64,000 bases of DNA from an uncultured delta proteobacterium (lineage in GTDB: Bacteria; Desulfobacterota; Binatia; UBA9968). This document shows positions 17,939 to 44,423 of the stretch, one piece after another (the first letter of the stretch is position 1; each line of letters begins with the position of its first letter). The position numbers were made by a program, and so were the translations under genes. The notes under the pieces are model-generated. The model was not told the DNA's origin and made no database searches. It saw only the letters and a list, made by a program, of their open reading frames with translations. Location: assembly GCA_963840855.1 (NCBI GenBank), contig CAWJBB010000079.1:128001-192000 (forward strand), in the 5' to 3' direction.

Positions 17939-17944
17939 GGCTAC

Positions 17945-20115: not shown

Positions 20116-21102
20116 TTACGAAACTTCGACAAAATAGGGGATCGCGCGGATGGCCACGCTAAGCGCAAGGACGCCGAGAGAAGCCAGAGCGAAGGGATAA
20201 AACCAAGGCACTTGTTTGCCCAGGCTTTTCACGAGAAAAGTTCCCTTCTCGGTTCTGTTGATATTCGCGTAGGCTTCCTCGAGCTGCTTCGCGTCGCGCA
20301 CGTCAAAGTAATTCCCCCCCGTGCCTTCCACCGCCGCAATCAACCGCGGCGCGTCGCGCGCTTTTTCCACTTCTACGCCGATAAAATGGATCTTGAATTT
20401 ATCGTCCTTCGCCCGCGCGATGGCCTGATAGACATCGCGGCCGGTGTTGTTCTCGCCGTCGGTGAGAACGATCATCACCCTTCCTTTGTCGGCTCCTTTG
20501 GCGTCCCGCCCTTGCTTGGCGGCGAGGTCGAGGGAAGTCAGAATTCCTTCACCGATGGCCGTTTGGCCCTCGCTGGCGAGCATCTTGTTGTCGACCAGTT
20601 GGAGATAACGCTGCACGTAAGCGGAATCGAAGGTCATCGGCGCCACAACGTAGCCATTTTCAGAGAACACGACCACCGCCAACCGGTCGTCGTGGCGCCG
20701 CTCCACGAAGGTGGCCATAGCTTCCTTGACGGCTCCCAGCCGGTCTTTTTCTTTTGTCCGAATACCCAGCCGTTGCCGTTCCAACGCGCCCCTGAGGTCT
20801 ATGGGCTCCTGCATACTGGAAGAGAGATCGACGACCATGATGATATCGAGACCTTTTTTAGCGATGAAACGTTGCGACGCGGGGAGCACCGGGTCCAGGA
20901 GCGCCACGACCAGCAATCCCAATGACAGAAGCTCCAGGAAACGCGGCAGATAAACCAGGCGGGAAGCCGGGCGAATTCGCGTCTTGAGATAGTGCAATAG
21001 AGGGTGGGTGAAGTAGCTCCGCGACCTGCGCCAGCGCACCGCCAAGACTAACACGATGAGCGGAATGAGAACCCACAGCAGATCCAAACGGGCAAACTTC
21101 AT
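20116..21102 (-). CDS. Membrane VWA-domain protein (BatA/MxaC-like)
   Basis: MIDAS DLSSS, TDGE, flanking TM helices. Confidence 0.9.
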   Translation of the reverse strand: MKFARLDLLWVLIPLIVLVLAVRWRRSRSYFTHPLLHYLKTRIRPASRLVYLPRFLELLSLGLLVVALLDPVLPASQRFIAKKGLDIIMVVDLSSSMQEPIDLRGALERQRLGIRTKEKDRLGAVKEAMATFVERRHDDRLAVVVFSENGYVVAPMTFDSAYVQRYLQLVDNKMLASEGQTAIGEGILTSLDLAAKQGRDAKGADKGRVMIVLTDGENNTGRDVYQAIARAKDDKFKIHFIGVEVEKARDAPRLIAAVEGTGGNYFDVRDAKQLEEAYANINRTEKGTFLVKSLGKQVPWFYPFALASLGVLALSVAIRAIPYFVEVS

Positions 21103-21112
21103 GTCGTGGCCT

Positions 21113-22183
21113 TTATATGCGCAGCCTTTGGGTCAACTTGCCAAGCTCGCCTTGAACCTCATCTCGCCAATCTCTTCCCAAATCTGCGCCCCGCCTTGTG
21201 TAAAGCACCTGCTCGCATCTCTCGAGCAGGGTTTTGATCGGCGCTCCCAACCCCTCTTGCCCGTGGTTTTTTAAAGCGCTGGCAACCTCATCTGGAGTCA
21301 GGCTTGAGACATCGATTTCCAGCGATTGACCGAGATACTCGCGCATGAACCGGGAGACTTCGGCATAGAACCGCAGCTGATCTTCGGCGGAATCCCGGCC
21401 CATCGTTTGAGTAGCGCGCAAGAAATCCTGCAGCATTCGGGCCTTGGCCCGCCGGGTCAAGTGTCGCGTTTTGGGTTTCTCCGTGGACGACGATGTCCAG
21501 AGGCGCCGGGTGAATTGCACGGCTAAAAAAATCATCCCCGCCAAACCGAGCGCCAGGGCGGCCATCCATCGCTCGGGGCCAGCCCGCGAGATGACTCTGC
21601 TGTCACGGGGCCTAAGGGCATCGGCGGTCAAAGTCGAACGGAGGCCAACTCGGGTCGCGGGCACGGGAAAAGATTCCGCGAGAGTATCTCCACCCTTCTC
21701 TGATCCCGCTTTGAGCGTAAAGTAATATAGGACGAAGGAAGGAATTCGTAGCTCGGCTTGCCCGCTCTCGTAGGTAGCGAGTAGAAGAATAACCTCGGTA
21801 ACTTTCTTGTCGGCGCCGAATGCGCCATGACGCACGGCAACTTCGCGCACCACGAATGGCGCCAGATTCAAGCTCTCCTTTTTCAAAGGTTCCAAAACAA
21901 TTTCGATGTTAGGATCATGGATAGCCCTCACGGTGTAGTGGAACAGGTCGCCAACCCAGACAGCAGTTTTATCCAAATGAGTCGAGACGGCGATTTTACT
22001 CGTCTTGACCTTTTTCTCCACCGGTGCGGCGCCCAGCGTCGTTAAAGCGAGTAGCAACAATAGAAGGCGCAAGGCGTGAGGCGCAAGGCGTGTCTTTATC
22101 GTGGTTCGTGTTCGTGATTCGTGTTCACCCGAGCACGAGAAACGAGCACGATTTCCACGAGATGATTGAGCGTAACGAATCAT
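21113..22183 (-). CDS. BatD/MxaA-like membrane protein
   Basis: As 14620..15690; start uncertain because the 5' end overlaps REP-like repeats. Confidence 0.65.
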   Translation of the reverse strand: MIRYAQSSRGNRARFSCSGEHESRTRTTIKTRLAPHALRLLLLLLALTTLGAAPVEKKVKTSKIAVSTHLDKTAVWVGDLFHYTVRAIHDPNIEIVLEPLKKESLNLAPFVVREVAVRHGAFGADKKVTEVILLLATYESGQAELRIPSFVLYYFTLKAGSEKGGDTLAESFPVPATRVGLRSTLTADALRPRDSRVISRAGPERWMAALALGLAGMIFLAVQFTRRLWTSSSTEKPKTRHLTRRAKARMLQDFLRATQTMGRDSAEDQLRFYAEVSRFMREYLGQSLEIDVSSLTPDEVASALKNHGQEGLGAPIKTLLERCEQVLYTRRGADLGRDWRDEVQGELGKLTQRLRI

Positions 22184-22223
22184 ATGACTTTTTTTCAGGC
22201 GCCCGCCGGTGATACGACCTTAT

Positions 22224-23108
22224 TCATCGACGCCTCTTGCGAGCAAGAAAGAAACCGATCAGCGGGTCCAGATAGGGTTTTCCGGGATGAAGAAACAGAT
22301 GGTCTAAGCCCATGGTGTAAAGAGCGCGCTCCAGCACGACCCGTCGTTCCAGCATCATGGACCGGTAGAGATCCTTATTCTTCCTGGTCAGGTTGAGAAC
22401 TATTCCAGCGCCAGATTCCGCGTCGCGCAGGCGCGCGAAGCCGCGCCCGCCGGGCAAGGCCTCCTCCCAGTTGTCCGCGACGATGAGGGGAATGAGATCG
22501 TGCTTGCGCGCGATATGCCTGAGCGCATGGCCATGCAAGGCCTCTTCCGCCTCAATGAAGTCCGAGATCAAAAAAATCAAGGCCGAGGTCCTAAGCTTGC
22601 CGAACAAATGCGCGAATGGGAGTGAAAAATCGGTCTTGACCGAGCTTGGTTTGACATCCCACAGGGATTCTAAAATCTGCCAGATTTGTCTGGAGCCCGC
22701 CTTGACCGGGATATCCAATTCGATTCTGTCGGTGAATCCCAGCAAGCCGACCTTCATATTGTCGCCAGTGGCGGAAAAAGCCAGGATCGCGGCGACCCGC
22801 ACGAGCAGCTCCCGTTTCGATTGGTCCACGCTGGCAAATTCCATCGACCGTGACAGGTCCGCGATGATGATGGCGCTCAACTCCTTCTCTTCGAAGTCCT
22901 TCTTCACGAACGGGTAGCGCATGCGCGCGGTGGCATTCCAGTCGATCTGCCGGTAATCATCGCCTTGTTGGTAAGGCTTGTGCTGGTCGAATTCGAAGCC
23001 TCTACCGCGCAGCGGGCTGCGATAGTCTCCCACCCGGTGATCCCGCACCGCCCGGCGCGTATAAATCTCGATGTAGCGCAACTCTTCCATCAACGCTCTA
23101 GGGATCAT
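22224..23108 (-). CDS. DUF58 family protein (MxaS-like)
   Basis: GRGFEF, GDDYRQIDWNATAR, DLSRSM. Confidence 0.93.
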   Translation of the reverse strand: MIPRALMEELRYIEIYTRRAVRDHRVGDYRSPLRGRGFEFDQHKPYQQGDDYRQIDWNATARMRYPFVKKDFEEKELSAIIIADLSRSMEFASVDQSKRELLVRVAAILAFSATGDNMKVGLLGFTDRIELDIPVKAGSRQIWQILESLWDVKPSSVKTDFSLPFAHLFGKLRTSALIFLISDFIEAEEALHGHALRHIARKHDLIPLIVADNWEEALPGGRGFARLRDAESGAGIVLNLTRKNKDLYRSMMLERRVVLERALYTMGLDHLFLHPGKPYLDPLIGFFLARKRRR

Positions 23109-23408
23109 ATTTATTATTCACCGCGACGGACACGACGAGCACGAAGGGTTCGCAATACGGGACGGTCGCGACCGTCCCCTACTTTGTGACCTTTGTACTA
23201 CTATGTTTAAGAGTTTTCGCGGCTCGCGCAAATTCTTTGTTGCCCTTATCCTAAATTGTGGAATTCAGAAGACAATACGGTATCACCACGAAGGCACGAA
23301 GGACACGAAGGGTTCGGATATTTATACTCTTAAACTTCGTGAACTTCGTGCCTTCGTGGTGAGTCCCCTCTTCTTGTGCCTTTTGTGGTTGAATCTCTTG
23401 TTCTCTTT

Positions 23409-24431
23409 CTATGGGACCGCGACTTTTGCCAATAATTCCTCAACGATTTCGTCCGGCGAGATGTTTTCCGCCTCCGCGCGCACGGTGCGGATCAAGCGGT
23501 GGCGCAGGGCGTCCGGAGCAATGCGCTTGACATCGGCGGGAAGAACGAAATCCCGGCCCGCGAAGAAGGCGGTGGTGCGCGCCAGCGCGAGAAGATGCTG
23601 CGCCGCCCGCGGCGACGCGCCATGAAGAACCATTTCACTGATCACGGGCAGGCTCACCGCCATCCCGTTGCGCGTGGCGCGGACGATGCGGATGACATAC
23701 TCTCTGATGGCATCGCTGACGAAGGTTTCCCCGCCGATGCGCTTGCGCAAGCGGATCACGTCGGCGGGCGCCATGACGGCCCTTACGGTCAATTGGCTCA
23801 AGTTGCGCGCGAGCATCGCGGCCTCGTCCGCATGGGTCGGATAGTCGACCTTCACTTTCAAGGAAAATCGGTCCACTTGAGCTTCGGGGAGAGCGTAGAC
23901 GCCTTCTTGTTCAATGGGATTTTGCGTCGCCAAGACCCAAAAGGGTTCATCCAGAGGATAGGTCGTCTCGCCGATGGTGACTTGCCGTTCCTGCATCGCT
24001 TCCAAAAGCGCGCTCTGGGTTTTCTGCGTGGCGCGATTGATCTCGTCGGCCAAAATCAAGTTGGCGAAGATCGGTCCCTTTTCGGTGCGGAACGTGCCCA
24101 GGGCAATATCAAAAATTCGCGTGCCGATGATGTCGGCGGGGAGCAGGTCCGGCGTGAACTGAATGCGTTGAAACCTGGCGCTGATCGTGTTGGCAAGGGT
24201 CATTACCGTCAGGGTCTTGGCCAGCCCGGGTACTCCCTCCAGCAGCACATGGCCGTAGCCCGATTTCTCCTCCTCGTCGCGCTTGAATGAATAAGGGATC
24301 TCCGAGAACAAACCGATCAGCAGGCGTTGAATCAGCCATTCCTGGCCCACGATCACCTTGTTGATCTCTTGCGCCACCGCCTGGATGGCTTCGAAGGCCT
24401 GCTCTTGGCCTATGTTTTCGCGCGTGTCCAC
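23409..24431 (-). CDS. moxR: MoxR family AAA+ ATPase
   Basis: Walker A GVPGLAKT, Walker B LADEINR, ATQNP, GASPRA. Confidence 0.96.
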   Translation of the reverse strand: MDTRENIGQEQAFEAIQAVAQEINKVIVGQEWLIQRLLIGLFSEIPYSFKRDEEEKSGYGHVLLEGVPGLAKTLTVMTLANTISARFQRIQFTPDLLPADIIGTRIFDIALGTFRTEKGPIFANLILADEINRATQKTQSALLEAMQERQVTIGETTYPLDEPFWVLATQNPIEQEGVYALPEAQVDRFSLKVKVDYPTHADEAAMLARNLSQLTVRAVMAPADVIRLRKRIGGETFVSDAIREYVIRIVRATRNGMAVSLPVISEMVLHGASPRAAQHLLALARTTAFFAGRDFVLPADVKRIAPDALRHRLIRTVRAEAENISPDEIVEELLAKVAVP

Positions 24432-24436
24432 GGCTA

Positions 24437-25444
24437 CTAACCCGAAATTAACAGCGTCAAAAAAAAGATGCCGGCCGCGGCCAGCAAAAAGCCATGATAA
24501 AAATCCTGGTATTCGATGACTTTTCTGAAGCCGGTGATATCGCGCTCTTTGAGAACGATTTCAGAAAAAGTCTTATCCAGCTCGAAACCGCTGAGAGAGC
24601 GGTAAAACTTCCCTCCAGTCTTGTCCGCGATCCAGTGCAGGGTGCGCTCATCGAAACGAGTGATGATCCTTTTACCCTGGTCGTCCTCGAGGTAAACAGG
24701 CCGGCCGCTCTCGTACGCGATCGGTATCGGCGCGCCTTCCACGGAGCCTACGCCGACGGTATGGACCTTGACTCCTTGTTCTTTCACCGCGTCAACCGCC
24801 CCATCGAGCTCCGCGCTGTTGTCCTCGCCGTCGGAAAGCAGGATAAAGACCTTCTTGTTGCGCGCCGCTGCAGGGTACACTTCGGCTTCTTTGCGAATCA
24901 CGGTAATACCATTTCTGAGCCCGCGCCCGATATTGGTTCCATGGCTCACGCTGGTGTCTTCTTTCAGATAGTCGAGATAATAGAGAATATTGTTGGCGTC
25001 TTCAGTCAGGTAGGAGATGATCACGCTGCCGCCGGCAAACGACACCAGCCCGACGCGGTCGTGCGCAAGCTTGGCGCGTGAAAAAGCGCCGATCACCTCC
25101 AACGCGCGCGCTAGCCGCGACGGTTGAATATCAGTGGCCCTCATGGAAGGAGATGTATCGAGCAAAAAGACCACGTCCAACACCCCCGGCTGGGGCACTT
25201 TTTGTTCTTGGACCAGTTGCGGATGGGCGAGGGCGAGAATGAGGGCCGCCATCACTAGATTCAAAAGCAAGAATCTAATAACGTCCTTGCGCAACGAAGA
25301 AAAACGAGAGATCCGTTTGAGCGCCAGCCCAACGCCCAGAGTCCGCCGGCTTTGGTGCTTGCCGTGGAGAAAATAGAGCCAACAGGGCAGCAAGGCGGCG
25401 AGCAAGAAGAACAGATTGAGATAGCCGGGATGTAAAAACTTCAT
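24437..25444 (-). CDS. Membrane VWA-domain protein (BatB/MxaL-like)
   Basis: MKFLHP start, TM segments, LDTSPSMRATDIQPSRL, GTNIG, LSDGED, VHTVGVGS.EGAPIP. Confidence 0.9.
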   Translation of the reverse strand: MKFLHPGYLNLFFLLAALLPCWLYFLHGKHQSRRTLGVGLALKRISRFSSLRKDVIRFLLLNLVMAALILALAHPQLVQEQKVPQPGVLDVVFLLDTSPSMRATDIQPSRLARALEVIGAFSRAKLAHDRVGLVSFAGGSVIISYLTEDANNILYYLDYLKEDTSVSHGTNIGRGLRNGITVIRKEAEVYPAAARNKKVFILLSDGEDNSAELDGAVDAVKEQGVKVHTVGVGSVEGAPIPIAYESGRPVYLEDDQGKRIITRFDERTLHWIADKTGGKFYRSLSGFELDKTFSEIVLKERDITGFRKVIEYQDFYHGFLLAAAGIFFLTLLISG

Positions 25445-25595
25445 CGGAGGCTTCGTGCCCTTCGCGTCCTTCGTGGGGCGTACTTCCCTCGCAACGAGTT
25501 CCTGTGGCAAGTTTTTACCACGAAGATCACGCAGGACTCGAAGATTAAATTAGCAAACATATCTCTTCACTGCCTTTTCCGCCGCCAAAACTCGT

Positions 25596-26213
25596 TCAGC
25601 CGCGCTTCTCAGGCGCCATTTGCTGCTGCGAGGGATCCTGGGGGCGCATCTTGTCCATGATCGATTTTACTTTTTGCTCCTGCGCCTTGCGGTCACGGTC
25701 CGGTTTCGCCAGGATGTTGCGGACCAGTTCATAATTGAACTTCAGGTCCCAGTCGTCCGGTTGCTGCGCAAGACCTCTTTGGTATTCTGACATAGCGGCC
25801 TTGAGTGCGTTGGTGGCGGTTTCCGCGTCTGGGCTTTCGATTGCCTGTCGAAACAGGACGTTTCCCATCCAAAAACTATAATCGGCGCTTTCGACCACCG
25901 CCGGCGCATCAACGGGCAGCTGCTCAAGCTTGGCCAGGGCGTCGCCGATCTTGCGCTGGCTATAGAGTAGGGCGACCTGGTTCAAGCTTGCTTGCTTGTG
26001 CTCCGCCGCAAGAATCTGAGTTTGCGAGGGAAGCATGTTCAACGGGCGCTCGACACGGGCATAGGTTTCCATAGCGCCAGCCATATCGCCCTGGAAAACG
26101 GCCGTCTGGGCGCGATCCAATTCGAACATCACCCAGCCATACGCGATCAACAGCGCAGAGATCACGAAAACGAGAACATATCCCGCCAATTTTGCGGCAT
26201 TCATTCTAGCCAT
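25596..26213 (-). CDS. Membrane-anchored TPR-like protein (MxaK/BatC-like)
   Basis: N-terminal TM, helical repeats, GNVLFR, P.DWDLKFNYEL. Confidence 0.7.
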   Translation of the reverse strand: MARMNAAKLAGYVLVFVISALLIAYGWVMFELDRAQTAVFQGDMAGAMETYARVERPLNMLPSQTQILAAEHKQASLNQVALLYSQRKIGDALAKLEQLPVDAPAVVESADYSFWMGNVLFRQAIESPDAETATNALKAAMSEYQRGLAQQPDDWDLKFNYELVRNILAKPDRDRKAQEQKVKSIMDKMRPQDPSQQQMAPEKRG

Positions 26214-26477
26214 CCAATCATCGGTTCATCTTGACGTCAAATACCTTCGTGAATCCTAAACCCAAAGCCGAAACAATCCAACAACCCAGAATAGGATTTG
26301 GTGCGAAAAATCCAATTTCCAAAAAAGGTTTATTGTAGTTTAGGGTATTCTAGTTGGTTTTTGAATTTGTTTCGAGCTTCGGATTTGGTGCTTCGAATTT
26401 GCTCGCTGAGATTCGGGCGCGCTCAGCACATCTTCCGTAGCGCTATTTTATCCTAAAACTATTTACTTGCCGTGACC

Positions 26478-26951
26478 TCAGCGGCTCTCCGTGGAAAATT
26501 TACGCTGCAACCAACCGGAAAACCCATCTTCTAGCACGCTGACATTGCGATACCCCTTGCCGCGCAATGCCAGGTAGGAATAGGATTCGTCAACGCCTCC
26601 CGGTGGGCAGGAGCAATAGAGAATCACCCGGCCGGACTTGGGGATTTCCTGATAGCGCATCTGCAATTCAGCCACTGGAATCGAACGAGCTCCCGGGAGA
26701 CGCGATTTTTGAAAATCGCTGGTCGGACGAAGATCGACAAAGAAAATTTTTTCCCCTGCTTCGAGCATCCTCTTTACCCGCTCCGACGGAATCGTTTCAA
26801 TGTATTCCTCGTCGTGTCCGCCGTTAGCGAGGGCGGGAATAAGAAACAAAAGAAATACTATTGACAGATCCGCCAACTCTACAACCACGCGCCGCATCGG
26901 GCTGCGTTGTAATACGCGATCGCCTGCCGCTTTGTGCCCGCCGGCGCTCAT
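26478..26951 (-). CDS. Exported rhodanese-fold protein 1 (YCSC)
   Basis: Hydrophobic leader then ANG|GH, VDLRP..DF...RLPGARSIP, VILYCSC, GYRNVSVLEDGFSGW; ATGA overlap with the upstream amidohydrolase stop. Confidence 0.88.
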   Translation of the reverse strand: MSAGGHKAAGDRVLQRSPMRRVVVELADLSIVFLLFLIPALANGGHDEEYIETIPSERVKRMLEAGEKIFFVDLRPTSDFQKSRLPGARSIPVAELQMRYQEIPKSGRVILYCSCPPGGVDESYSYLALRGKGYRNVSVLEDGFSGWLQRKFSTESR

Positions 26952-28674: not shown

Positions 28675-28866
28675 AAAACGGTTTCTCCTCCCGAAAATTT
28701 TGTGCGTGATTGCCGTATACTATTCCCGGTTAGTCTTCGTCAACTGATCGAGCGCGGGTTATCGAACAGAACTATAAAGCAGCATCAGCCCAAAGCTGAT
28801 CAACCTGAGCTTGGTCCTGCGTCGTATTCCCGCCAAGCGCTCGGCTGGAACCGCTGACGTCGGTCT

Positions 28867-33994: not shown

Positions 33995-34038
33995 TTTTTG
34001 ACGAAGCAACACGGCGAATTAAACAAAAGATCGGAGAT

Positions 34039-34077
34039 AAAGGGATAGAAGATGTCGCACCTCTATCCCTTTTTTTT
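34039..34077. terminator. Intrinsic terminator-like hairpin between amidohydrolase 3 and copC
   Basis: AAAGGGATAGA...TCTATCCCTTTTTTTT; long T tract on +, short on -. Confidence 0.6.
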
Positions 34078-34097
34078 GTCCACTGCCTGCGGACCAC

Positions 34098-35859: not shown

Positions 35860-35977
35860 AAAAACCTCCTTGTGGTTTCGCTTTCTTATTTATTATTGGC
35901 TTTTTGCTCGAAGCAGATTCTCCTGTTAAGCGTATAGCATAGAGCCTGTAGCCCTGAAAAGCCCAAATGCTAACTGC

Positions 35978-36409
35978 TTACTTCTTACCCGTTTCAACCG
36001 GAAACTTTCGTTTAACCCATTCCTTAAAAGTATCCGCCATGACCGAAATATTGCGATACTCATGGTCGTCGCGCAGTGGTAGATACGCTTCCTGAACCAG
36101 CTCGTCTTGCTCGCAGTCGCAGTAGAGCACCACCCGGCCCGCCTTGGGAATCTCCCTTAAACGTTTTTCAAGCTCGTTCATGGGGAGCGAACGGGCGCCC
36201 GGGATGCGTGCCTGCTTAAAGTCTTTGGCGGGCCGGAGGTCGAAAAGAATGAGCGGTTCGCGCGCAGCGAGATAATACTTGACCCGCTCCATCGTCACTA
36301 TCGAGACAGGTTCCTCCGAGCCGTGGCCGGCCACAGCGATCCTCGTGGGGAACCCCACGACCATGGCGAAAAGAAAGACGAAAACTCGATGGCCAGAGCA
36401 CAGGCGCAT
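35978..36409 (-). CDS. Exported rhodanese-fold protein 3 (YCDC)
   Basis: Leader ending AVA|GH, FDLRP, RIPGARS, VVLYCDCEQ. Confidence 0.88.
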   Translation of the reverse strand: MRLCSGHRVFVFLFAMVVGFPTRIAVAGHGSEEPVSIVTMERVKYYLAAREPLILFDLRPAKDFKQARIPGARSLPMNELEKRLREIPKAGRVVLYCDCEQDELVQEAYLPLRDDHEYRNISVMADTFKEWVKRKFPVETGKK

Positions 36410-36461
36410 CTTAGGATTGTCTCCGTAAATAGCAGAGCGACAATATCCGCCAGCGGCTTTA

Positions 36462-38303
36462 TTACTCGATAACCCCCGGCGCTTCCTTGCCGCCAAACTC
36501 CGCCACCTGGGGACCGCGGGTCCTCCCTCTCAACGCGGAGTTTTCGTGGATAATCTTGCCACTTACCATAGTGAGCACTGGAGCGACAGTTCCGATCTCG
36601 CCTTCGGGCACCGTCAGGTAATCGCGGTTGAGGACCAGCAAGTCAGCGAACTTTCCCGGCTCCAGCGAACCCAAAACATTTTCCTTCAACACATACTCTG
36701 AAGCCCACACGGTTCCCATCTTTAGCGCGAGCACGCGGTCGATCTTCTCCCGCGCCGCATAAACCTTACCGTTCACCTCACGCGTCACTAAGAGTTCCAG
36801 GTAGTGGAATGGACCCTTTGTCGGCGTGAAATGAATATCTGTTTCCAGTACTGTCTTCACTCCGGCTTCGATAAGGCTCTTGGCGGGAGCGACCCAGTTG
36901 AGATATTTCTCGCCATAATCGCGCAGCACTTCCGGGCTGGCGTTTTCGATATACTTGGGACTGCAGCTCACGAGAATACCGAGCTTCTTTAATCTCGGCA
37001 TTTGATCCGGTCTCGGATTCATCGTGCAGTGATCGACAGAATGACGCCGGGCCTGGATTTGCTCAGGCGACATGCCGGCTTTCTTGCTCCCCTCTTCGAT
37101 GACATCCATCACCTGGTCCAAGGTGGCGTCCCCCGCGACATGCGTGTTGCTAAAACGCAGCCCTCGGGCGACGATTTCCTCTAAGACCTTGCGCCTGTAG
37201 TCCCCGCCATCCAAACGAGTCATCTCCCTCGATTTGATTTCCGCCGGCGCGTCAGCGCTGGATTTTAGCTGTGGGTACGAGCCATCGGCGCTGACCAGGC
37301 TGATGCCGTTGGGCCAGAGATACTCAGATCCCTGCCCCTCTACCAGTTCCATGTAGCCGCGCACCATGGCCGGTCCTTGTGAAGTTCCGGTAATGAGACT
37401 TCCCAAACCATAGGCGAAGCGCACGACCATTTCGCCCTTTTGATCGAGAAGCCGATAGGCGCGAATCGTATTCAACGCTGAGGTAGAGGAAGACCAGGTG
37501 GTCACGCCATAGGCCGCCAATTCCTCCTGTTCTTTCTTGTAGAGATCGGCCAACAGAGGAAGCTTGCCATCGAGGATGATGTCGGTTTGGAGCGAGCGCC
37601 GGATGCTGGCGCTCCATACGATGCCATCCTCGCTGATCTCTTCATCCAATGCGCCATAGTGGCGCTTGAATGCCTCAAGGGCGCGGCTGCTGAACAATCC
37701 ACGATTGCCGGCCTGGATGAAAATCGCATGATCAGGCGAGATTTTATCCAGCTCTTCTTTGTTGAACATCTTGAGGTCCGTCATCGCCACTTTGATGTCC
37801 ACTTGTTTGCCATCGCGCATGACGCGATTCGGTAGCCTCACCCATATCCACTCGCCCGGTTGGGCTTTCTTTACCTCCGCCTGAACGGTTTCCAGCGTCG
37901 CCTTTCTCAGCTCTGCCCACTCCCGCCCCTTGATTGCCGGTTTTCTCAGCTCAGGGAGGTTCCTCCCCCAGTGGTCCATGGTGTATTCCATCGCGTGGTA
38001 GTGGGTGTCGATGATTCCAGGGACCACGGTCCTACCGCGCAAATCGATGATCTCGGTCTTGGGGCCTTTCAGCGCGAGAATTCTATTGTTGGCACCGAGA
38101 GCCAAAATCCTGCCATCTCGGATGGCGAGCGCCTGGACGATCGTTCCGGGATTGGTGGATGTTGTCTTGTCGTCCACCGTGACGATCTTACCATTGTGCA
38201 GAATCGCTTCCGGATAGCGGATCAATTCCGGCGGCAGGTTTTGCGCGAATGCAGGACTCAAGGAAAGTAGACCAACTAAAAAGGAAAAAAATAGCCTTCT
38301 CAT
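36462..38303 (-). CDS. Exported amidohydrolase-3 paralog 4
   Basis: AFA|Q, IDTHYH, THVAGD, DHC, SCSPKY, GSLEPGKFAD. Confidence 0.93.
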   Translation of the reverse strand: MRRLFFSFLVGLLSLSPAFAQNLPPELIRYPEAILHNGKIVTVDDKTTSTNPGTIVQALAIRDGRILALGANNRILALKGPKTEIIDLRGRTVVPGIIDTHYHAMEYTMDHWGRNLPELRKPAIKGREWAELRKATLETVQAEVKKAQPGEWIWVRLPNRVMRDGKQVDIKVAMTDLKMFNKEELDKISPDHAIFIQAGNRGLFSSRALEAFKRHYGALDEEISEDGIVWSASIRRSLQTDIILDGKLPLLADLYKKEQEELAAYGVTTWSSSTSALNTIRAYRLLDQKGEMVVRFAYGLGSLITGTSQGPAMVRGYMELVEGQGSEYLWPNGISLVSADGSYPQLKSSADAPAEIKSREMTRLDGGDYRRKVLEEIVARGLRFSNTHVAGDATLDQVMDVIEEGSKKAGMSPEQIQARRHSVDHCTMNPRPDQMPRLKKLGILVSCSPKYIENASPEVLRDYGEKYLNWVAPAKSLIEAGVKTVLETDIHFTPTKGPFHYLELLVTREVNGKVYAAREKIDRVLALKMGTVWASEYVLKENVLGSLEPGKFADLLVLNRDYLTVPEGEIGTVAPVLTMVSGKIIHENSALRGRTRGPQVAEFGGKEAPGVIE

Positions 38304-38325
38304 CTGTATCTCCCTTCTTGATTCT

Positions 38326-38763
38326 CTAGCGGGTTACTTTTTTGGCAATCGTCTCCATCGGATAACCGCGGTTTACCCAGCCCTGGAATCCATCCGCCAT
38401 TATGGCAGCATTGCGGTAACCATAGTCTTTGAGTAACAAGTAAGCGTCGTCGATAATCTGATTTTGCGGGCAGTCGCAATAGAGCACCACGCGACCCGAT
38501 CGCGGAATTTCCGTGTAGCGCTTAGCCAGTTCCTTCAGCGGAACGGAACGCGCACCGGGGAGCCGCGCTTTCTGAAAGTCAGCGCCGGCACGAAGATCGA
38601 CGATGATGATCTTCTCGCGCGCATCGAGAAAAGCCTTCACCTGCTCAACCGTGACCGTGACCACATCTTCTTCACTGCCATGCCCGGCCCATGCCACCGC
38701 GGGCGAAACCATCACGAGTGCGAGTATAAGAGCGGCGAGCTTTCTATCATTTGTCACATGCAT
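38326..38763 (-). CDS. Exported rhodanese-fold protein 4 (YCDC)
   Basis: Signal peptide AWA|GH, VDLR, RLPGARS, VVLYCDCPQ, GFQGW. Confidence 0.9.
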   Translation of the reverse strand: MHVTNDRKLAALILALVMVSPAVAWAGHGSEEDVVTVTVEQVKAFLDAREKIIIVDLRAGADFQKARLPGARSVPLKELAKRYTEIPRSGRVVLYCDCPQNQIIDDAYLLLKDYGYRNAAIMADGFQGWVNRGYPMETIAKKVTR

Positions 38764-38777
38764 AGTTCGTGTCTGCG

Positions 38778-40575
38778 CTATTTGCTCGGCGTTAGTGCAA
38801 GACCCACCGCCGGTAATTTCTCCGCCTTGGCGAATTGCGGATTGGTGTACACCAGCTTACCCGCGACCGCAGTCAGCATTACGTTGATCTTCGAGAGATC
38901 TTCGTCCGGAGTATTCAGGTAATCGCGGTCTATAATGACGAAATCCGCCCACTTCCCACGCTCGAGGGAGCCCAGAACCTTTTCACGCAGAACGTATTCG
39001 GCGGCCCAACGGGTGAACATCTTTAGAGCCGTAGACTTATCGACGGCTTGCTTTGCTCCCCAGGTTCTTCCCTCGCTGTCCTTGCGGGTAACCGCATACT
39101 TGATGTGAGCAAAGGCGCCGCCTTCCTTTCTGTGCACCCTGCGATCGTCCATTTCCATAACGACTTTCCCGCCGGCTTGTAGAATGTTCTGGATGGGCGC
39201 GTTCATCTCATGCGCGTATTTTTCGCCGTAGTCCCGGGATATGTCGGCAGCATCCTCTATATATCGGGGCGCGCAACTCCAGATGATGTCGAGTTTTTTT
39301 CCCCGTTCGATTTGGTCGGGCCGCGGGCTCATGCCGCAGTGGTCAATGTTATGCTTCTTGGCCCGGATCTCATCGGCGCTTATTCCCGCCTCCGCGCTCG
39401 CCTTCTCGATCAGGTCGAGATATTTATCGACCGCGCCATCGCCATAGACATGGGTTCCTGAGATGCGCTGCCCTGCTTGAACCGCGGCGCGCATGATTTT
39501 GTATTGCGCATCCGCCTCGCATATCTCCCGCGACTTGATTTCGTCACGCGCATTAACCGTGGTGCAGTGCCGCGGGTAACTGCTGTCGAGAGCGGACAGC
39601 GATACGCCAATGGTCCACAAGTAGTTCGTGCCGTGACCGACATTGTTTCCCAGCCGCTTGTAGAACTCTGCCGGCATGGGCAAAACCTGCGGCGCCCATT
39701 CGATGCGAGTACGCAAAGCGGATCGGCATCTCACCGGCACGGTCCAGCACGGCAAAGCCGTCAAAAACCTTGGCCGTTGGTAGCGACGATGACCAAGTGG
39801 TAACGCCAAGCGCAGACCAGGCCTGTAACTCCTTCTTATAAATGGCTGCGAGTGTTTACGGCTTTTGCACGAGAATCTCGCCGATTAACGTGCGCATGGC
39901 GCCGGAGCCGATCGGCCCCCGTGGAGTCCCTTTCGCGTCCGAGGGTATCTCTTCTGGAAGCTCGCCGAAGTAGTCAGTGAACATCTTAAAGATGAGACTG
40001 TTCGCCCTTCTATCCGTGCCGCGGAGCTGGACGACAATCGGATTCTTAGGCGCAAGCTCGTCCATTTCTTTCAGCATCATCTTTTTGCCGAACTCCTCAG
40101 CGACGCTAGACGGCTGGAGTTGCACGTGGACGATCTTGCCCGCGGGAGTTTTCGCAAGCATCTCCTTCAAGCGAGCGATCGCTTCGTCGACGGATTTAAC
40201 CCGAACCTCGGTCTGCCGGTACTGCGCCAACTCCGGCTCGAGCTTTTCAAGATCGTTCGCCCAATTTGCCGGTGCGTAATCGAACAGGTGGGAATGTGTG
40301 TCGATAAACCCAGGTAGTACTGATTTACCCTTCAGGTCCAGTTGCAGGGTTTTAGGGCCGGCTAGCGCGAGGATTTCGCTGTTGCTGCCGACGGCCATGA
40401 TTTTGCCGTCGCGCACGGCAAGGGCCTGCGACACGGAAAAACGCTCGTCCACCGTAACTATTTTCCCATTGTGATACACAGCATCCGCGAAAATCACCAT
40501 CCCTTTACCGGTTTGCGCCGCGGCTTGACTCGTGAGAAGACAGTACGACATTAAGAAGCTAATCAGCCATCTCAT
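38778..40575 (-). CDS. Exported amidohydrolase-3 paralog 5; in-frame TAA at 39856 and frameshift near 39680 (error or pseudogene)
   Basis: AAA|Q, IDTHSH; reading continues in frame through the stop (GVTTWSS, GEMPIRFAY), then THVYGD, DHC, SCAPRY in the shifted frame. Confidence 0.85.
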
Positions 40576-40670
40576 GGGTTTTTCCTCCTTGTGACTGTAT
40601 TTAAGTCAACGCAGGCAATGTGTCCACCCCTGCGCCGTTAAAAAATCACCCAACTTCGCCCAGGCGCGAG

Positions 40671-41787
40671 TCACTGCTCCGTAGCCCGCGGCGCTGGCAA
40701 TCCCCACACTTCAACGGCGATGCGCTCGGCAATCTTGTTTCCTTTTAGCAAGCAGGCGACATTGCAAAACGAAACGCTGGCGCTCTTTGTTAGCTGATGA
40801 GTTAAATTTCCCTCAACCAGGAACGAACCTCTACCGGGTTCCGTCGATTCGACGATTTGCTGGGCCTCGCCGAGAAGCTAAAAACTCCAGCCAGAGAAGC
40901 GCTGCATGAGGATTCTTGGCGCCCGCATAGATCGCCTGGGGATCGTGCAAGGTGATCGGGAGAATCTCCGGTACTACCATCTTGATGGGCAGATTCGGAT
41001 CCTTCTTCAACATGCGGCTCATCGGATGGATATACATCCCGCAGTTCATGGAGAGCTTGCCCTCGGCCAGCAAACCGAGGTTGCGGGTATTGCCCCGGCC
41101 AAACACTGCCTGGTTATCTTTCAATCCCCGGGCAAAGTCGAAAAGTCTTTCCTCCCCCCAGCGCGGGATGAGCCATGTCAGCATATTGGGATTGGCATCG
41201 ACGCTGAACCTGCCTTTCCATTGCGAGTCGAGGCAGCTCGCCCAACCCTTGGGGGCTTTGTCCGCTGCTATCAGGCTTGAGTTGTAAGTGATGATGCCGG
41301 TGTTGTTCGACGGCCACACAATCATGCCCGTGTCATCGATCATCTCGATGGGAATTTTGATCTGACCATCCCGCGCCATCGCCTTGAGGTCATACTTTTT
41401 GACAAGCCCCCGCTCAGGATATTCGTTTGGGAAAGAGCCGCTAAATCCTAAAACATCGACGACCGCCTCGCCTGCGACAAGCTCATCGAGCGCTTGTTTG
41501 GGATTTGGCCTCGAGCCCATTTTGCTGGCGCCCCACCCGGGCTGCACAAAGGGATACCTTTTGCCGAACGCCTTGAGAAGCTCCGGTATCGTTGCTTTGT
41601 CATACTCGGGCCGCAGCGCGGGATGCAAAAGCAGTTTCCCTTCCTTCTTCGCTCCCTCGATCATCTGCGCGCTTGACACATAAATCGTTGCCGGCCTTGG
41701 CTGGGCCGTGGATTGGCTCGCGGAAAACATTGCCGCGAGAGCAAACGGGATAGAAAAACAAACATGGAAATATTGCGCTAGTTTCAT
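40671..41787 (-). CDS. AfuA-like ABC substrate-binding protein; frameshift near 40873
   Basis: Signal peptide, GAKKEGKL, FGKRYPFV, NPHAALLWLEF; shifted frame continues GEAQQIV...VWGLP to a stop at 40671; homologous to 10121..11245. Confidence 0.8.
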
Positions 41788-42086
41788 TTTTGTAACCTTT
41801 GTGCTCTTTGTGGCTGATCTTGCCTGCCTTCTATGTGGTTCAAAGTTTTCGCGGCGCGCGCAAATTCTTTGGTTACCTTGATCCTAAATTGGGGAATTCA
41901 CAAGACAATACGGTATCACCACGTAAGGCACGAAGGACTCGAAGGGTCCGAATATTTATATTATTAAACTTCGTGAACTTCTGCCTTCGTGGTGAGTCCC
42001 TTCTTCTTGTGCCCTTTAGGGTTAAATCGCTTATTCCGTTTGGTTGCGGTCGCCGCGCTAGGTTTTTCGTGGCGCGTGTCCCTAAC

Positions 42087-42557
42087 CTACCGCCGGCCCG
42101 CCTCGATGGGAAATTTACGCTTTTCCCAGCCGTAAAACCCTTCCAGCATGAAAGCGATATTTCTGTACCGGTTGTCCTCAAAAAGCTGAAACACGGAGTC
42201 CGGAATCTCGTCTTGCGGCGTTGCCGCGTATACAATGACCCTTCCCGACTTGGGAATCTCGCCCAACCGCTTGTCCAACTCCGCCATCGGAATCGAGCGG
42301 GAGCCGGGAAGTCTTTTGTCTTGGAACTCTTTTGCCGGCCGGATATCGATGAGCAAAAATTTTTCGCCGGCGTCGAGCAGCAGCTTGAGGCGGTCGGCCG
42401 CGATGGTAGTAACGTCCCTGCCCTCATGCCCGGCTTCCGCCAGCGCCGGCGCTAAAGCAAGAACCAAGACCGTTAGAAAAATAATTACATGGCCCGCCCT
42501 GACGATTCTTATCGCCGATTGCTTTTCCCTCTTGATGGCTCGTTTACGGATTGCCAT
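42087..42557 (-). CDS. Exported rhodanese-fold protein 5 (cysteine-free, YAAT)
   Basis: AEA|GH, IDIRP..EF..KRLPGSRSIP, VIVYAATP, EGFYGW. Confidence 0.87.
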   Translation of the reverse strand: MAIRKRAIKREKQSAIRIVRAGHVIIFLTVLVLALAPALAEAGHEGRDVTTIAADRLKLLLDAGEKFLLIDIRPAKEFQDKRLPGSRSIPMAELDKRLGEIPKSGRVIVYAATPQDEIPDSVFQLFEDNRYRNIAFMLEGFYGWEKRKFPIEAGRR

Positions 42558-42587
42558 CGCTGCTGCGGCTCAGTTATCTTCTCTCGC

Positions 42588-44423
42588 CTACTTACTTGCC
42601 GCCCTTTCATAAACCGTCTTGCCGCCCACGATGGTCAGATCGACCAGCAACTCGTCGATCTTGTCCTCCGCGACGGACATGTAATCGCCGTTGAATACCA
42701 CCAGGTCGGCATATTTGCCGCGCTCGATGGAACCCAGCATCTTCTCCTCGCCGATGAATTTCGCCGCATTATACGTCGTCATCAACAAAGCCTGTTTCCT
42801 ATCGATGGCTTGATTCTTACCCCACACCCGCCCTTCGCGGGCGCTGCGCGTGCTTTTATCCGTCCGGGTCACGAACCGCTCGATCCTCCAGACCGGCGGC
42901 TCATCCGGCTTACCGCCCTCGATGTGGACATTCACCCCGGCATTGATCAAGTCCTTGACCGGCTGCATGGAATGCATCTGCTCGCCGTACTGCGCGAAGA
43001 GCATCTCTTCGCCCCGCACGACGCGCTGGCTGAAAATCTCGGAATTCAACCCGAATGCCAATCCGTCGCCGAGCTGCTTGGACAGGGCGAGCGATTTCGC
43101 ATCCCAGATCAAGTTGTGATCGAGCGCGTTGCGCCCGAGCATGGTGTGCACCTTGATCTCAGGTTGCTTCTCGGCGTCCGCCAGACTTTCCAGCACGATT
43201 GTCGTCGCGCCGCTGCCCATATTGTGGTTACCGCTGATATTCCAGCCGTGTTTGCGCAGGAGTTGTAGAGTCGTCCATTCGGTATCGCGTTTCTCTGCGT
43301 CGTTAAGATCGCGCCACTGCTTGCCGGTCCATTCCGGCCCCGTCCATTTGTTGCGTCCGTAGAGCCCGCCCTTGACCTCGGCATGAGCGGCCCGCTTGGG
43401 CTCGTTGGTCATGATGCCGCCATCATCCGACGCGCCGTCCACCGGTCCCACCGCGGCGCCAACGATTCTTACCATGTCATCGCCGAGTCTAAAGTTCACC
43501 AGGTTGGGAGTACGCCGCAGAATCTGGTCGGCCATGGGATTTTGCCGCGCGAAATCTAAGGTAGGGCGGATACGCATCTTGAGGCGGTCGTGATGGAACA
43601 TCTGGCTAACGATGGTCACCGTGTAGCCGCTCGCATGACCGGTGATCGTCGTCACCCCGACCCTGAGAAATTGGTCGATGATTTCCGCCTGCTCCTTGAA
43701 GATCTCTTCGGTGAGCTCCGGCCAGTCGCGCAGGTTCCAGCCGATAAATCCCAGGGCCTGACTGAAGAGCTGGCCGGTGGGATTGCCGTTCGCATCCTTG
43801 ACGACTTGAAAGTGCTCTTTGCGCATTCCCGCGGCGAACGCCTTCTCCAACATGAGCGTGTTGACGACTCCCTCTGAGCTGGAAAGCGACAGCATCAGAG
43901 GATTATTGGGCGCGAGCTTGTCCAGGTCCCTGGCCGTCAGTTTCGACAGATCGCTGACGAATTCGTCCGCCATGCGGACGTATACGCTCGAGCCGGGCTT
44001 TGCCTGCGAAACCAGATTGCCGACCTGAGTCAACATCTCGGGGACGTTCTTGCCTCGAACCCTCCTGCCAACTTTTCCATTGACCATGGTGTCCTTATAG
44101 AGATCGCCGCCCGCAAAGGCATTGTCGCCGTCGCTGTCGATGAATCCTGGGACGACGCTTCTCCCTCTGAGATCGACGCGGCGCGTGTCCGGCCCCGCGA
44201 GCCTCATCATTTCAGCGCTGCTCCCCACCGCGAGAATCTTTCCGTCCCGCACCGCCACCGCCTCGGCGACGGTGAAATTCTTGTCAGCGGTGAGCACTTT
44301 GCCGTTGTGCAAAATCAAATCGGCGTAGCGGATCAGCTCCGGCGGCAGCGTCTGAGTGACGCCCTGGCCTGCGAGCATCAACAAGAAAAACCAGCCCGGA
44401 TAAGCGGATAAAATTGTTCTCAT
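42588..44423 (-). CDS. Exported amidohydrolase-3 paralog 6, divergent (DSDGD in place of DTHxH; no Cys)
   Basis: LILHNGKVLT, AVAVRDGKI, VVPGFIDSDGD, GSIERGKYADLVV; AAGGAGG RBS. Confidence 0.88.
   Translation of the reverse strand: MRTILSAYPGWFFLLMLAGQGVTQTLPPELIRYADLILHNGKVLTADKNFTVAEAVAVRDGKILAVGSSAEMMRLAGPDTRRVDLRGRSVVPGFIDSDGDNAFAGGDLYKDTMVNGKVGRRVRGKNVPEMLTQVGNLVSQAKPGSSVYVRMADEFVSDLSKLTARDLDKLAPNNPLMLSLSSSEGVVNTLMLEKAFAAGMRKEHFQVVKDANGNPTGQLFSQALGFIGWNLRDWPELTEEIFKEQAEIIDQFLRVGVTTITGHASGYTVTIVSQMFHHDRLKMRIRPTLDFARQNPMADQILRRTPNLVNFRLGDDMVRIVGAAVGPVDGASDDGGIMTNEPKRAAHAEVKGGLYGRNKWTGPEWTGKQWRDLNDAEKRDTEWTTLQLLRKHGWNISGNHNMGSGATTIVLESLADAEKQPEIKVHTMLGRNALDHNLIWDAKSLALSKQLGDGLAFGLNSEIFSQRVVRGEEMLFAQYGEQMHSMQPVKDLINAGVNVHIEGGKPDEPPVWRIERFVTRTDKSTRSAREGRVWGKNQAIDRKQALLMTTYNAAKFIGEEKMLGSIERGKYADLVVFNGDYMSVAEDKIDELLVDLTIVGGKTVYERAASK

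Follow-up and report, generated by a model that had tools for sequence, protein, structure and literature searches.

The region between positions 20116 and 44423 of a 64,000-nucleotide stretch of DNA from an uncultured delta proteobacterium (Desulfobacterota; Binatia; UBA9968; contig CAWJBB010000079.1, positions 128,001 to 192,000; this whole stretch is hereinafter the window) encodes a conserved gene unit that combines six exported amidohydrolases (AH1 to AH6), five small exported rhodanese-like proteins (Rhd1 to Rhd5), the copper protein CopC, a CopD-cytochrome c fusion and a six-gene MoxR/VWA module. We tentatively interpret the AHs as periplasmic enzymes of metallohydrolase fold that may be matured by a copper-linked accessory module together with a MoxR module of the Mxa/Bat type, a reading that we consider plausible, though somewhat more apt to fail than to hold.

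All long open reading frames (ORFs) of 20116-44423 that are recognised by Pfam lie on the minus strand. Pfam matches and the ORF list together bear out the order of transcription given in a preliminary description made from the sequence alone, namely AH6-Rhd5-SBP-AH5-Rhd4-AH4-Rhd3-AH3-CopC-AH2-Rhd2-CopD/cytochrome c-AH1-Rhd1-TPR-VWA-MoxR-DUF58-356-aa protein-VWA, where SBP is a solute-binding protein (Table 1). As that description also had it, five of the six AH genes are directly followed by an Rhd gene and the sixth, AH3, by copC; the AH1 and Rhd1 genes are coupled by an ATGA overlap; and a hydrophobic leader is visible on every AH and Rhd, that of AH1 lying on the 28417-28674 piece.

The same arrangement recurs elsewhere. 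Related loci (L-numbers below) from species-representative genomes (23) and metagenome contigs (79), 100 distinct loci in all, were mapped with the window proteins, and the cluster was found in about 50 of them. Recurrence in dozens of independent contigs puts the arrangement far beyond chance. Among the 49 AHs that are at least 70% identical to a window AH and have downstream room (drawn from 137 AH genes at 88 loci), 42 are followed by Rhd, and the pairing is ortholog-specific: AH1 precedes an Rhd1-type gene in 10 of 11 cases, AH2 an Rhd2-type gene in 15 of 16, AH4 Rhd3 in 4 of 4 and AH5 Rhd4 in 11 of 12. The series TPR-VWA-MoxR-DUF58-x-VWA, x being the 356-aa protein, is present in all 10 Rhd-type loci whose sequence extends at least 5 kb beyond the last AH and in 11 of the 12 that extend at least 3 kb, the one miss being a contig that ends inside the flank. 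The smallest version, L004 (AH-Rhd-CopC-CopD-cytochrome c-TPR-VWA-MoxR-DUF58-x-VWA), keeps all modules, and the number of Rhd copies per genome ranges from 1 to 8.

Records of carriers are titled Binatia, 'Deltaproteobacteria', Thermodesulfobacteriota, Acidiferrales and Verrucomicrobiia. RpoB is 83-90% identical to that of the window genome in four of five carriers compared (none was found in the fifth), and by sequence all genome-resolved carriers compared appear to belong to one bacterial family. The Rhd clade is present in 21 of 123 genomes of the order, all in one family (20 of its 89 other genomes) and in 6 of 27 genera. The CopD-cytochrome c fusion is encoded in 24 of these 89 genomes, including all 20 Rhd-positive ones, and AH2-like proteins (E<=1e-100) in 11, that is, in a patchy 12 of 90 family genomes; the family tallies include an unpublished genome (G498), without which the numbers are 19 for Rhd, 23 for CopD-cytochrome c and 10 for AH2-like proteins, each of 88. 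A sample of 400 other genomes of the phylum gave no strong match to the Rhd clade, which is a sampling effect, as the search of the order found carriers. An integrase lies upstream of the island in L031. The system is an accessory island of one soil lineage. With 42 of 49 AHs followed by Rhd, the MoxR module in 10 of 10 loci and CopD-cytochrome c in 20 of 20 Rhd-positive genomes, the genes form one conserved unit, as had been proposed; within the 100 loci mapped, the neighbourhood co-occurrence that had been put forward as a check is likewise seen for close AH homologs, which keep rhodanese, cop and MoxR neighbours, several distant loci being without them. In a soil metatranscriptome library (run X20), contigs were found for 29372-29595, 35076-35304, 37397-37575, 41327-41477 and 42091-43337, two of the pieces being identical and the others about 94-99% alike. 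Expression of the cluster by a near-identical strain is thereby weakly hinted at, though such libraries can contain DNA.

All six AHs score above the gathering threshold of Pfam Amidohydro_3 (89-150 bits against 29.7; N-terminal piece of AH5, 35.3). Relatives of AH2 come exclusively from metagenomes and metagenome-assembled genomes (MAGs), their best name being 'predicted amidohydrolase YtcJ', and a full HMMER scan yielded 243 clusters of the AH clade at 50% identity (E<=1e-30). By sequence the nearest solved proteins to AH2 are the uncharacterised Pyrococcus 3IGH (6.7e-24) and 3ICJ (5.5e-21), and an AlphaFold2 model spanning residues 1-587 of 609 (pLDDT 92.4) matches 3ICJ in Foldseek with E 1.5e-30, TM-scores of 0.60/0.74 and 21% identity. 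The TIM-barrel motif residues of AH2, i.e. the HxH of β1, the His of β5 and β6 and the Asp of β8, align with those of 3ICJ and 3IGH. The key residues of AH2 are H125, H127, H406, H439, H443, C444, C465 and D506; in a fast MAFFT alignment of 114 clade members H125, H127, H406 and H443 are found in 111-114 and D506 in 72. At the position of the Lys of the GVK motif of 3ICJ, which in 3ICJ and 3IGH we take to be carboxylated and to bridge a binuclear centre, AH2 has Ser and the 114 members commonly have S, G, T, A or R, Lys not being among the five commonest residues. By this alignment, the AH clade appears to have no equivalent of the bridging carboxylated Lys and to be a non-standard member of the family.

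A subclade signature (HH.HHHCCD) adds His439, Cys444 (right after the β6 His) and Cys465 (end of β7). Both Cys are found in every non-degenerate AH of loci with Rhd, cupredoxin or MoxR, and the full signature in nearly all; in 45 of 46 cases C444 and C465 are present together, no further position being co-conserved. In AH6, DSDGD replaces the HxH and both the Cys pair and the β8 Asp are lost; it is probably non-catalytic. Prediction, with alignments, of a complex of mature AH2 (46-609) with mature Rhd2 (81-198) gave ipSAE values of 0.36, 0.21 and 0.00, speaking neither way. An exported protein of about 190-200 aa without a Pfam family (L016 2097-2693, L017 11563-12132, L022 2136-2732, L047 4360-4944, L048 5029-5613) follows certain distant AH relatives that share 34-37% identity, of which three lie on Acidobacteriota-titled contigs; its C-terminus is always CFFY(M/L)H, possibly a sorting or modification signal.

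Rhd1 to Rhd5 match Pfam Rhodanese with 40-52 bits (cutoff 22.2). Rhodanese sulfurtransferases have a six-residue cationic active-site loop after the Cys. The equivalent stretch of Rhd reads LYC-D/S-C-P, then Q/P-N/G (the Rhd4 loop being LYCDCPQN), with no Arg or Lys, and because this loop is without basic residues a thiosulfate sulfurtransferase activity of Rhd appears doubtful. Among NCBIfam models, NF041203 ('rhodanese-related (seleno)protein, LYCAU') fits best, with 51.2 bits for Rhd1 and 59.8 for Rhd4 against a cutoff of 115. The active-site Cys is present in Rhd1 to Rhd4, and the CxC is kept in 52 of 55 Rhd; Rhd5 has lost both Cys (YAATPQ) but keeps an N-terminal His. This His, just after the leader, is invariant in 43 of 43 Rhd (5 from the window and 38 from other loci) and in 55 of 55, the residues before it in the 43 being AG (24), AA (8), GG (7), AS (2), PG (1) and GT (1); the predicted mature N-terminus of Rhd4 is GHGSEE. 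An X-His N-terminus is known to bind Cu(II), as in the GHK peptide and sites of the amino-terminal Cu(II)- and Ni(II)-binding (ATCUN) type, and we infer that mature Rhd would begin with such an arrangement.

The genome to which the window belongs encodes two further proteins of this kind. One (L103 1614-2087, contig C55) is an exported candidate selenoprotein, a weaker Rhd relative with an in-frame TGA in ILYUACP, the gene of which adjoins two others, one Sco1/SenC-like and one for a VKOR-thioredoxin fusion. The second (L104 5803-6780, contig C52), likewise a weaker relative, is a DedA-rhodanese fusion and candidate selenoprotein with LYCS followed by TGA. Exchange of selenocysteine and Cys marks redox-active cysteines, and because Rhd relatives appear to have selenocysteine in the same motif the CxC of Rhd is probably a redox or soft-metal site and not a persulfide carrier. 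Neither the Cu-S cofactor entertained in the preliminary description nor a sulfur-transfer role is borne out: the Rhd loop is non-basic and of the LYCAU type, and a Cu-S centre in the AHs is not called for because their Cys pair co-occurs alone, as a disulfide would.

The copper proteins match their Pfam families above cutoff. CopC scores 80.3 bits with Pfam (cutoff 23.3) and 79.3 with NCBIfam NF033814, below its cutoff of 95; its H29 (His1 of the mature protein) aligns with His1 of Methylosinus CopC 5ICU, and its SVDGH with SSDGH. The CopD domain scores 76.3 bits with Pfam (cutoff 32.1) and 158.6 with NF033808, below the cutoff of 195; the same protein also contains a c-type cytochrome (CAGCH) and a tail that resembles a thioredoxin fold and has no Cys, an architecture conserved over the full length in relatives. 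In related loci an AH3-type gene is followed by Rhd and then CopC, or directly by CopC. Within the window's family, the trio of Rhd, CopC and CopD-cytochrome c also follows an exported LVIVD β-propeller of about 470 aa with neither an AH nor the MoxR module (L106 9201-13513, L108 7426-11691), the stop of the propeller gene overlapping the Rhd start. The propeller is found at no less than 64% identity in 17 of 90 family genomes, with Rhd adjacent in 15 of these. Its model (pLDDT 90.1) has the Sphingobium phosphotriesterase 5HRM as closest structure (3.3e-15, TM about 0.6, 17% identity), and His 165, 246, 292, 326 and 362 and Cys 320 are invariant. We considered the copper enzymes methanethiol oxidase and thiocyanate dehydrogenase as identities for the propeller and rejected them: the SBP56 Pfam matches are below cutoff and sequence and fold searches of the PDB return 5HRM only. 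In a third context in the family (L107 7616-12269), a bicupin gene precedes one for a cytochrome b561-CopC fusion, after which comes CopD-cytochrome c.

Judged by its gene contexts, the Rhd-CopC-CopD-cytochrome c trio behaves as an accessory module for what appear to be several exported metallohydrolase-like enzymes; an accessory rather than a pathway role is suggested because it also follows the unrelated propeller. The earlier view of Rhd as a helper dedicated to AHs accordingly has to be given up, as Rhd is also coupled to the LVIVD propeller in the same family. The MoxR module, by comparison, is specific to the amidohydrolases. Of its six Mxa/Bat-type genes, MoxR (AAA_3 211.8 bits, AAA_lid_2 70.4 bits), DUF58 and both VWA proteins are matched by Pfam, and the TPR protein weakly (20.2 bits against a cutoff of 27.6); NCBIfam BatB/BatA models match the VWA protein at 24437-25510 below cutoff. 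The earlier label 'BatD/MxaA-like' for the 356-aa protein is not borne out by family matches: the protein matches no Pfam or NCBIfam model, and a weak BatD lead in the Atlas (11% of the members of one cluster) is all that points there. It does sit where MxaA/BatD sits in such modules and is conserved in relatives. Neither Pfam nor NCBIfam has a family model that names the AHs, the Rhd clade or this protein.

A second, distant lineage couples similar AHs to copper proteins and MoxR. Gammaproteobacterial MAG and marine contigs encode AHs that are 38-46% identical to those of the window and belong to the same signature clade (HH.HHHCCD). In five of these loci (L009, L010, L011, L056, L057) the immediate neighbour of the AH is an exported cupredoxin of 145-152 aa with a His...Cys-x2-His(-Met) pattern, weakly resembling the cupredoxin domains of Cu nitrite reductase and amicyanin. 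L009 continues with MoxR-DUF58-x-VWA, and L060 and L081 run from AH to MoxR into the contig end. The link of AH to MoxR and the link of AH to a copper protein are thus each seen in a second, distant lineage. Two of these cupredoxin-type loci (L056, at 1485-3956 and 6486-7583, and L057, at 7984-8757 and 12428-13618) have further neighbours: genes for DUF1028 proteins (N-terminal nucleophile (Ntn)-hydrolase-like) adjoin the AH in both contigs, and nearby L056 encodes a DUF305 protein and L057 a lipoprotein of NlpE-like type. The copper link drawn in the preliminary description is strengthened by the Rhd His (43 of 43), the cupredoxin partners and the agreement of CopC with 5ICU in His1 and DGH; the AHs themselves may still have an ordinary Zn/Fe/Mn centre, all their canonical His/Asp ligands being kept.

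A mechanism can be sketched from these components. The clients would be the Sec-exported YtcJ-like paralogs, each with its own small exported partner of rhodanese fold. CopC would capture periplasmic Cu(II), which the CopD-cytochrome c protein would move and/or reduce. Rhd would then act as a dedicated, client-specific accessory, holding Cu at its N-terminal X-His and using the CxC as a Cu(I) or thiol-disulfide site, and would load or activate the metal centre of the client; C444 and C465, the pair flanking the catalytic β6 His, may take part in this. The MoxR-VWA machine would remodel the AH for the filling of its centre, in the manner of MxaRSACKL (Ca) and NorQD (FeB). The reaction catalysed would most likely be periplasmic hydrolysis of an amide- or ester-type bond, the paralogs differing in substrate. 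A bolder form of this proposal, which we rate as rather unlikely, has both the YtcJ-like TIM barrel and the LVIVD propeller use a copper-containing or copper-dependent redox-active centre in place of Zn/Fe/Mn. This centre would be installed by the rhodanese-fold protein as a metallochaperone of a new class (X-His for Cu(II), the CxC for Cu(I) or disulfide chemistry), which CopC and CopD-cytochrome c would feed, and would be completed, for the AHs, by the Mxa-like MoxR/VWA module acting across the membrane.

Several observations weigh against maturation by a copper-linked module. The canonical metal ligands of the AHs are all kept and are compatible with an ordinary mononuclear Zn/Fe/Mn centre. 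The DHC/SCxP cysteines behave in a way that fits a plain structural disulfide pair. The mature N-terminus that places the invariant His second in Rhd was derived by applying the -3/-1 rule to the sequence and not by a prediction program. Coupling of the CxC to the AH metal is not strict: the presumably dead AH6-type enzymes keep a CxC partner in three of five pairs, and co-degeneration of AH6 and Rhd5, which we had considered as proof of coupling, is weak as such, the CxC being lost in only two of the five. MoxR is cytoplasmic and the clients are periplasmic, and its action would have to pass via the membrane VWA proteins. All carriers of the Rhd type that were compared are close kin, and the synteny may partly reflect inheritance and not selection. 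Signature-clade AHs with at least 5 kb of flank have neither Rhd, cupredoxin nor MoxR in L047/L048, L058, L084 and L086. In the gammaproteobacterial lineage, the cupredoxin locus L057 lacks a MoxR gene within about 9.9 kb, and the cupredoxin, amicyanin-like at weak E-values, fits electron transfer better than metal delivery.

This last point leads to an alternative in which the AH has an ordinary or redox-labile centre, e.g. Fe(II), and catalyses a redox-coupled reaction or needs to be activated reductively in the oxidising periplasm. Electrons or thiol-disulfide equivalents would be carried by the small partner, a CxC rhodanese in this family and a blue-copper cupredoxin in Gammaproteobacteria, which would be fed via the cytochrome c of CopD, and copper would be only a cofactor of the carriers. 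The Rhd relatives with selenocysteine for Cys (ILYUACP; LYCS-TGA) and NF041203 as the best model point to a catalytic redox Cys, the gammaproteobacterial partner has type-1-like His/Cys/His(/Met) residues with a weak match to the cupredoxin domains of Cu nitrite reductase and amicyanin, CopD of these clusters invariably bears a c-type cytochrome, and C444, right after the catalytic β6 His, pairs with C465 in what is possibly a regulatory disulfide. One Rhd per AH paralog, specific to the ortholog, would however be unusual for a diffusible electron carrier, and Cys-less partners of the Rhd5 type still keep the N-terminal His. CopC, as a binder of Cu(II), would be left without a role, the β-propeller client is hydrolase-like, and we know of no redox reaction for the amidohydrolase fold; we regard this alternative as unlikely.

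We judge with similar reserve the proposal that the components have nothing to do with one another: the AHs would be ordinary Zn/Fe/Mn periplasmic hydrolases that scavenge N or C from amides, with the products taken up through SBPs and Opp-type transporters, and CopC/CopD-cytochrome c and the Bat-like MoxR genes would be separate, co-inherited housekeeping modules. Such co-inheritance accords with the close relationship of the Rhd-type carriers compared (RpoB 83-90%), with the patchiness of the island (12 of 90), the integrase of L031, and the transposase remnant and many duplications of the window; SBP and Opp/Dpp components recur nearby, CopC-CopD-cytochrome c stands beside other genes (L106-L108), several distant signature-clade AHs have no such neighbours, and Bat-type MoxR operons are widespread without AHs. 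Yet the module content remains constant while AH and Rhd copies vary from 1 to 8, another class (L009, L060, L081) again shows adjacency of AH, MoxR, DUF58 and VWA although its AHs are only about 40% identical, a copper protein is the immediate neighbour of the AH in both lineages, none of the 20 Rhd-positive genomes is without CopD-cytochrome c, and the AH1 and Rhd1 genes overlap from stop to start. Acquisition of copper is a further candidate, in our estimate an improbable one: the AHs, and the propeller, would hydrolyse chalkophore-like Cu-chelating amides or esters brought by the orphan SBP, and the Cu(II) set free would be caught by the X-His of Rhd and by CopC, reduced by the CxC or cytochrome c and taken into the cell through CopD. 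Apart from the MoxR set, all components that are not enzymes are able to bind copper or to move it, the orphan SBP_bac_6 protein is repeatedly encoded directly upstream of AH1/AH2-type genes in the gene maps of relatives, several paralogs could match several chelators, one trio serves two hydrolase folds, and CopCD/YcnJ is regarded as a copper importer (PMC13344008). It leaves unexplained the dedicated Rhd of each enzyme and the MoxR-VWA module tied to AHs; moreover, the gammaproteobacterial relatives are without CopC/CopD in the flanks fetched, and the Rhd-type loci showed no genes for making chalkophores or for uptake via TonB.

Set beside known systems, the proposed maturation of the AHs finds its closest parallel in MxaRSACKL and the homologous Bat (Bacteroides aerotolerance) operons. 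As judged from family matches, it has in common with them MoxR (AAA_3), DUF58 and a pair of BatA/BatB-like VWA proteins, and more tentatively a TPR protein and a bitopic membrane protein, all encoded beside genes of a Sec-exported metalloenzyme. MxaRSACKL inserts Ca into the periplasmic methanol dehydrogenase, a pyrroloquinoline quinone (PQQ) propeller, whereas the client here is of amidohydrolase fold, the order is permuted (TPR-VWA-MoxR-DUF58-x-VWA) and CopC, CopD-cytochrome c and Rhd partners are added. A MoxR ATPase and VWA proteins are likewise encoded beside the client enzyme in NorQ/NorD, CoxD/CoxE/CoxF and CbbQ/CbbO, which mature or reactivate metalloenzymes. CoxDEF builds the Mo-S-Cu site of carbon monoxide dehydrogenase. 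NorQ/NorD insert the non-heme FeB into the nitric oxide reductase cNOR (PMC9976466). Unlike here, where the VWA proteins are membrane-anchored and the putative clients periplasmic, the clients of those systems are membrane-bound or cytoplasmic and their VWA proteins soluble. The YtcJ-like 3ICJ and 3IGH share with the AHs the fold, the HxH, the β5 and β6 His and the β8 Asp; the window AHs differ in the added Cys pair and His439, the export signal, the fixed accessory genes and the lack of a carboxylated-Lys equivalent.

The partner proteins have parallels of their own. The NF041203 seleno-rhodaneses and periplasmic rhodaneses such as PspE likewise combine one rhodanese domain and a signal peptide, LYCDC being LYCAU with Cys for selenocysteine; Rhd differs in scoring below the family cutoff, in the invariant X-His at the predicted mature N-terminus and in its coupling to exported hydrolases and CopC/CopD. 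As a working analogy only, CCS, the chaperone of Cu,Zn-superoxide dismutase, which has a CXC motif, is also a client-dedicated accessory that delivers Cu and handles a disulfide of its client; it is not homologous and has another fold and another compartment. The copCD genes also stand beside periplasm-facing Cu enzymes, in pmo/amo operons and in thiocyanate dehydrogenase clusters. Here too a CopC with a single Cu(II) site, closest to that of Methylosinus (5ICU), and a CopD accompany the genes of an extracytoplasmic enzyme, but the fold of this enzyme is not known to use copper, and the CopD bears a tail of thioredoxin-fold-like type besides its cytochrome c. A paper on thiocyanate oxidation (PMC5744179) contains the terms copC, copD and rhodanese. 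Full-text literature searching, judged by listings and the openings of abstracts, gave no description of the amidohydrolase/Rhd/CopC/CopD/MoxR combination, in agreement with the earlier remark that no pathway with it had been described.

Three of the AH genes are broken, AH1, AH3 and AH5 having one frameshift apiece near 28452-28489, 34241 and 39646-39673, respectively: one base is missing near 28452 in AH1, and one is extra near 34241 in AH3 and near 39673 in AH5. Orthologs of the broken AHs are intact in L003 and L013 (those of AH5 at L003:3478-5349 and L013:14737-16530). Contigs of four public soil runs were mapped on 26400-44500, none of the runs having more than 24% of the sampled words. 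A relative's soil-metagenome contig has an additional T at 28452, the break point of AH1, and two soil runs have one base less at 39673, that of AH5; these are the two sites that the comparison resolved. Because the orthologs are intact and the relatives' contigs differ by one base at the AH1 and AH5 sites, the breaks are private to this assembly, i.e. indel errors or very recent lesions. In-frame selenocysteine sites are ruled out as their cause, the pieces being in different frames.

The window is also rich in repeats. A 6.5-kb tandem duplication covers most of the MoxR module, which is therefore present twice, the junction lying inside the BatA-like gene; the copy at 12094-18546 has genes for VWA, the 356-aa protein, DUF58 and MoxR, a truncated BatA-like gene and, on the plus strand, SBP genes. 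About 4 kb from this copy, the first of the two in the window, a CoxL/M(/S)-like molybdenum hydroxylase is encoded on the minus strand (5761-9473; MoCoBD large subunit 5761-8034, FAD subunit 8574-9473). A unit of about 1.5 kb with SBP genes is present in three copies (10583-12094, 12094-13565, 18547-20058), 44437-46151 and 46310-48024 are 94% alike, and 48352-49987 and 50996-52625, which carry TPR genes, are 92% alike. The near-identical tandem duplications may be real recent events or assembly artefacts. An intergenic repeat of about 200 nt has copies at 16712-16910, 23205-23403 and 41838-42036 (88% between copies); the summed contig depth in the soil runs at 41981 is 10-20 times that of the flanks, and the repeat looks like a high-copy element of soil metagenomes. 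An Rfam scan of the window gave no match, this repeat included. A direct repeat of 100 nt (52626-52725 and 62748-62847, 96% identical) is spaced 10 kb apart.

Table 1. Features of the amidohydrolase cluster and its tandem copy, with window positions and the evidence for each.
Feature	Position	Strand	Evidence
AH6, exported YtcJ-like paralog	42588-44423	-	Pfam Amidohydro_3 1.2e-32; motif table
Rhd5, exported partner of AH6	42087-42557	-	Pfam Rhodanese 3.9e-10
Repeated intergenic element of about 200 nt	41838-42036		self-BLAST 88%
Orphan periplasmic solute-binding protein SBP_bac_6	40831-41787	-	Pfam 8.8e-6
AH5, in two frames (38778-39809 + 39856-40575)	38778-40575	-	Pfam; intact orthologs
Rhd4, exported	38326-38763	-	Pfam 5.2e-13; NF041203 59.8 bits (cutoff 115)
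AH4, intact, HYH variant of HxH	36462-38303	-	Pfam 5.7e-41; alignment
Rhd3	35978-36496	-	Pfam 5.3e-11
AH3, C-terminal ~47 residues out of frame; followed by CopC instead of Rhd	34101-35859	-	
CopC, single Cu(II)-site type	33623-34012	-	Pfam CopC 2.2e-22; PDB 5ICU 1e-18
AH2, reference amidohydrolase	31653-33482	-	AlphaFold2 model pLDDT 92.4; Foldseek 3ICJ 1.5e-30
Rhd2	30979-31575	-	Pfam 4.2e-13
CopD + c-type cytochrome + tail, 685 aa	28867-30924	-	Pfam CopD 2.7e-21, Cytochrom_C 5.8e-12, AhpC-TSA 5.7e-5 (below cutoff)
AH1, leader/N-terminus on 28417-28674, rest on 26948-28420	26948-28674	-	Pfam; relative's contig
Rhd1, start overlapping AH1 stop (ATGA)	26478-26951	-	ORF list, Pfam
Membrane-anchored TPR-like protein, opens the MoxR module	25596-26213	-	weak Pfam TPR-S 8.9e-4; conserved position
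BatA/BatB-like membrane VWA protein, metal-ion-dependent adhesion site (MIDAS) DTSPS	24437-25510	-	Pfam VWA 6.9e-19, BatA N-term 2.2e-4
MoxR-type AAA+ ATPase	23409-24431	-	Pfam AAA_3 3.5e-63, AAA_lid_2 1.1e-19
DUF58 protein, MxaS-type partner of MoxR	22224-23108	-	Pfam DUF58 9.2e-51
356-aa bitopic membrane protein, no named family	21113-22183	-	conserved in relatives; no Pfam/NCBIfam match
Second BatA-like membrane VWA protein, closes the cluster	20116-21102	-	Pfam VWA 8.8e-18
Tandem copy of 18586-25040, 99.5% identical	12094-18546	-	self-BLAST 6455 bp, 2 gaps; Pfam

All parts of the system are from known families, and the maturation of metalloenzymes by MoxR-VWA machines is itself already known. 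Amidohydrolase-superfamily enzymes are textbook examples of Zn/Fe/Mn hydrolases that assemble by themselves, only urease requiring helpers. What sets the AH clade apart is that it appears to have lost the bridging carboxylated Lys, is predicted to be exported, and is genetically tied to a small, client-specific partner with a copper motif, to copper import genes and to a MoxR/VWA module like the one that inserts Ca into methanol dehydrogenase. If this link is functional, the AHs would represent a new class of clients for MoxR/VWA maturation machines, the CxC/CxU rhodanese-like (seleno)protein family would gain its first role, and a very well studied fold might harbour new metal chemistry. It would likewise offer a way into the 'predicted amidohydrolase YtcJ' genes that abound in uncultured soil bacteria.

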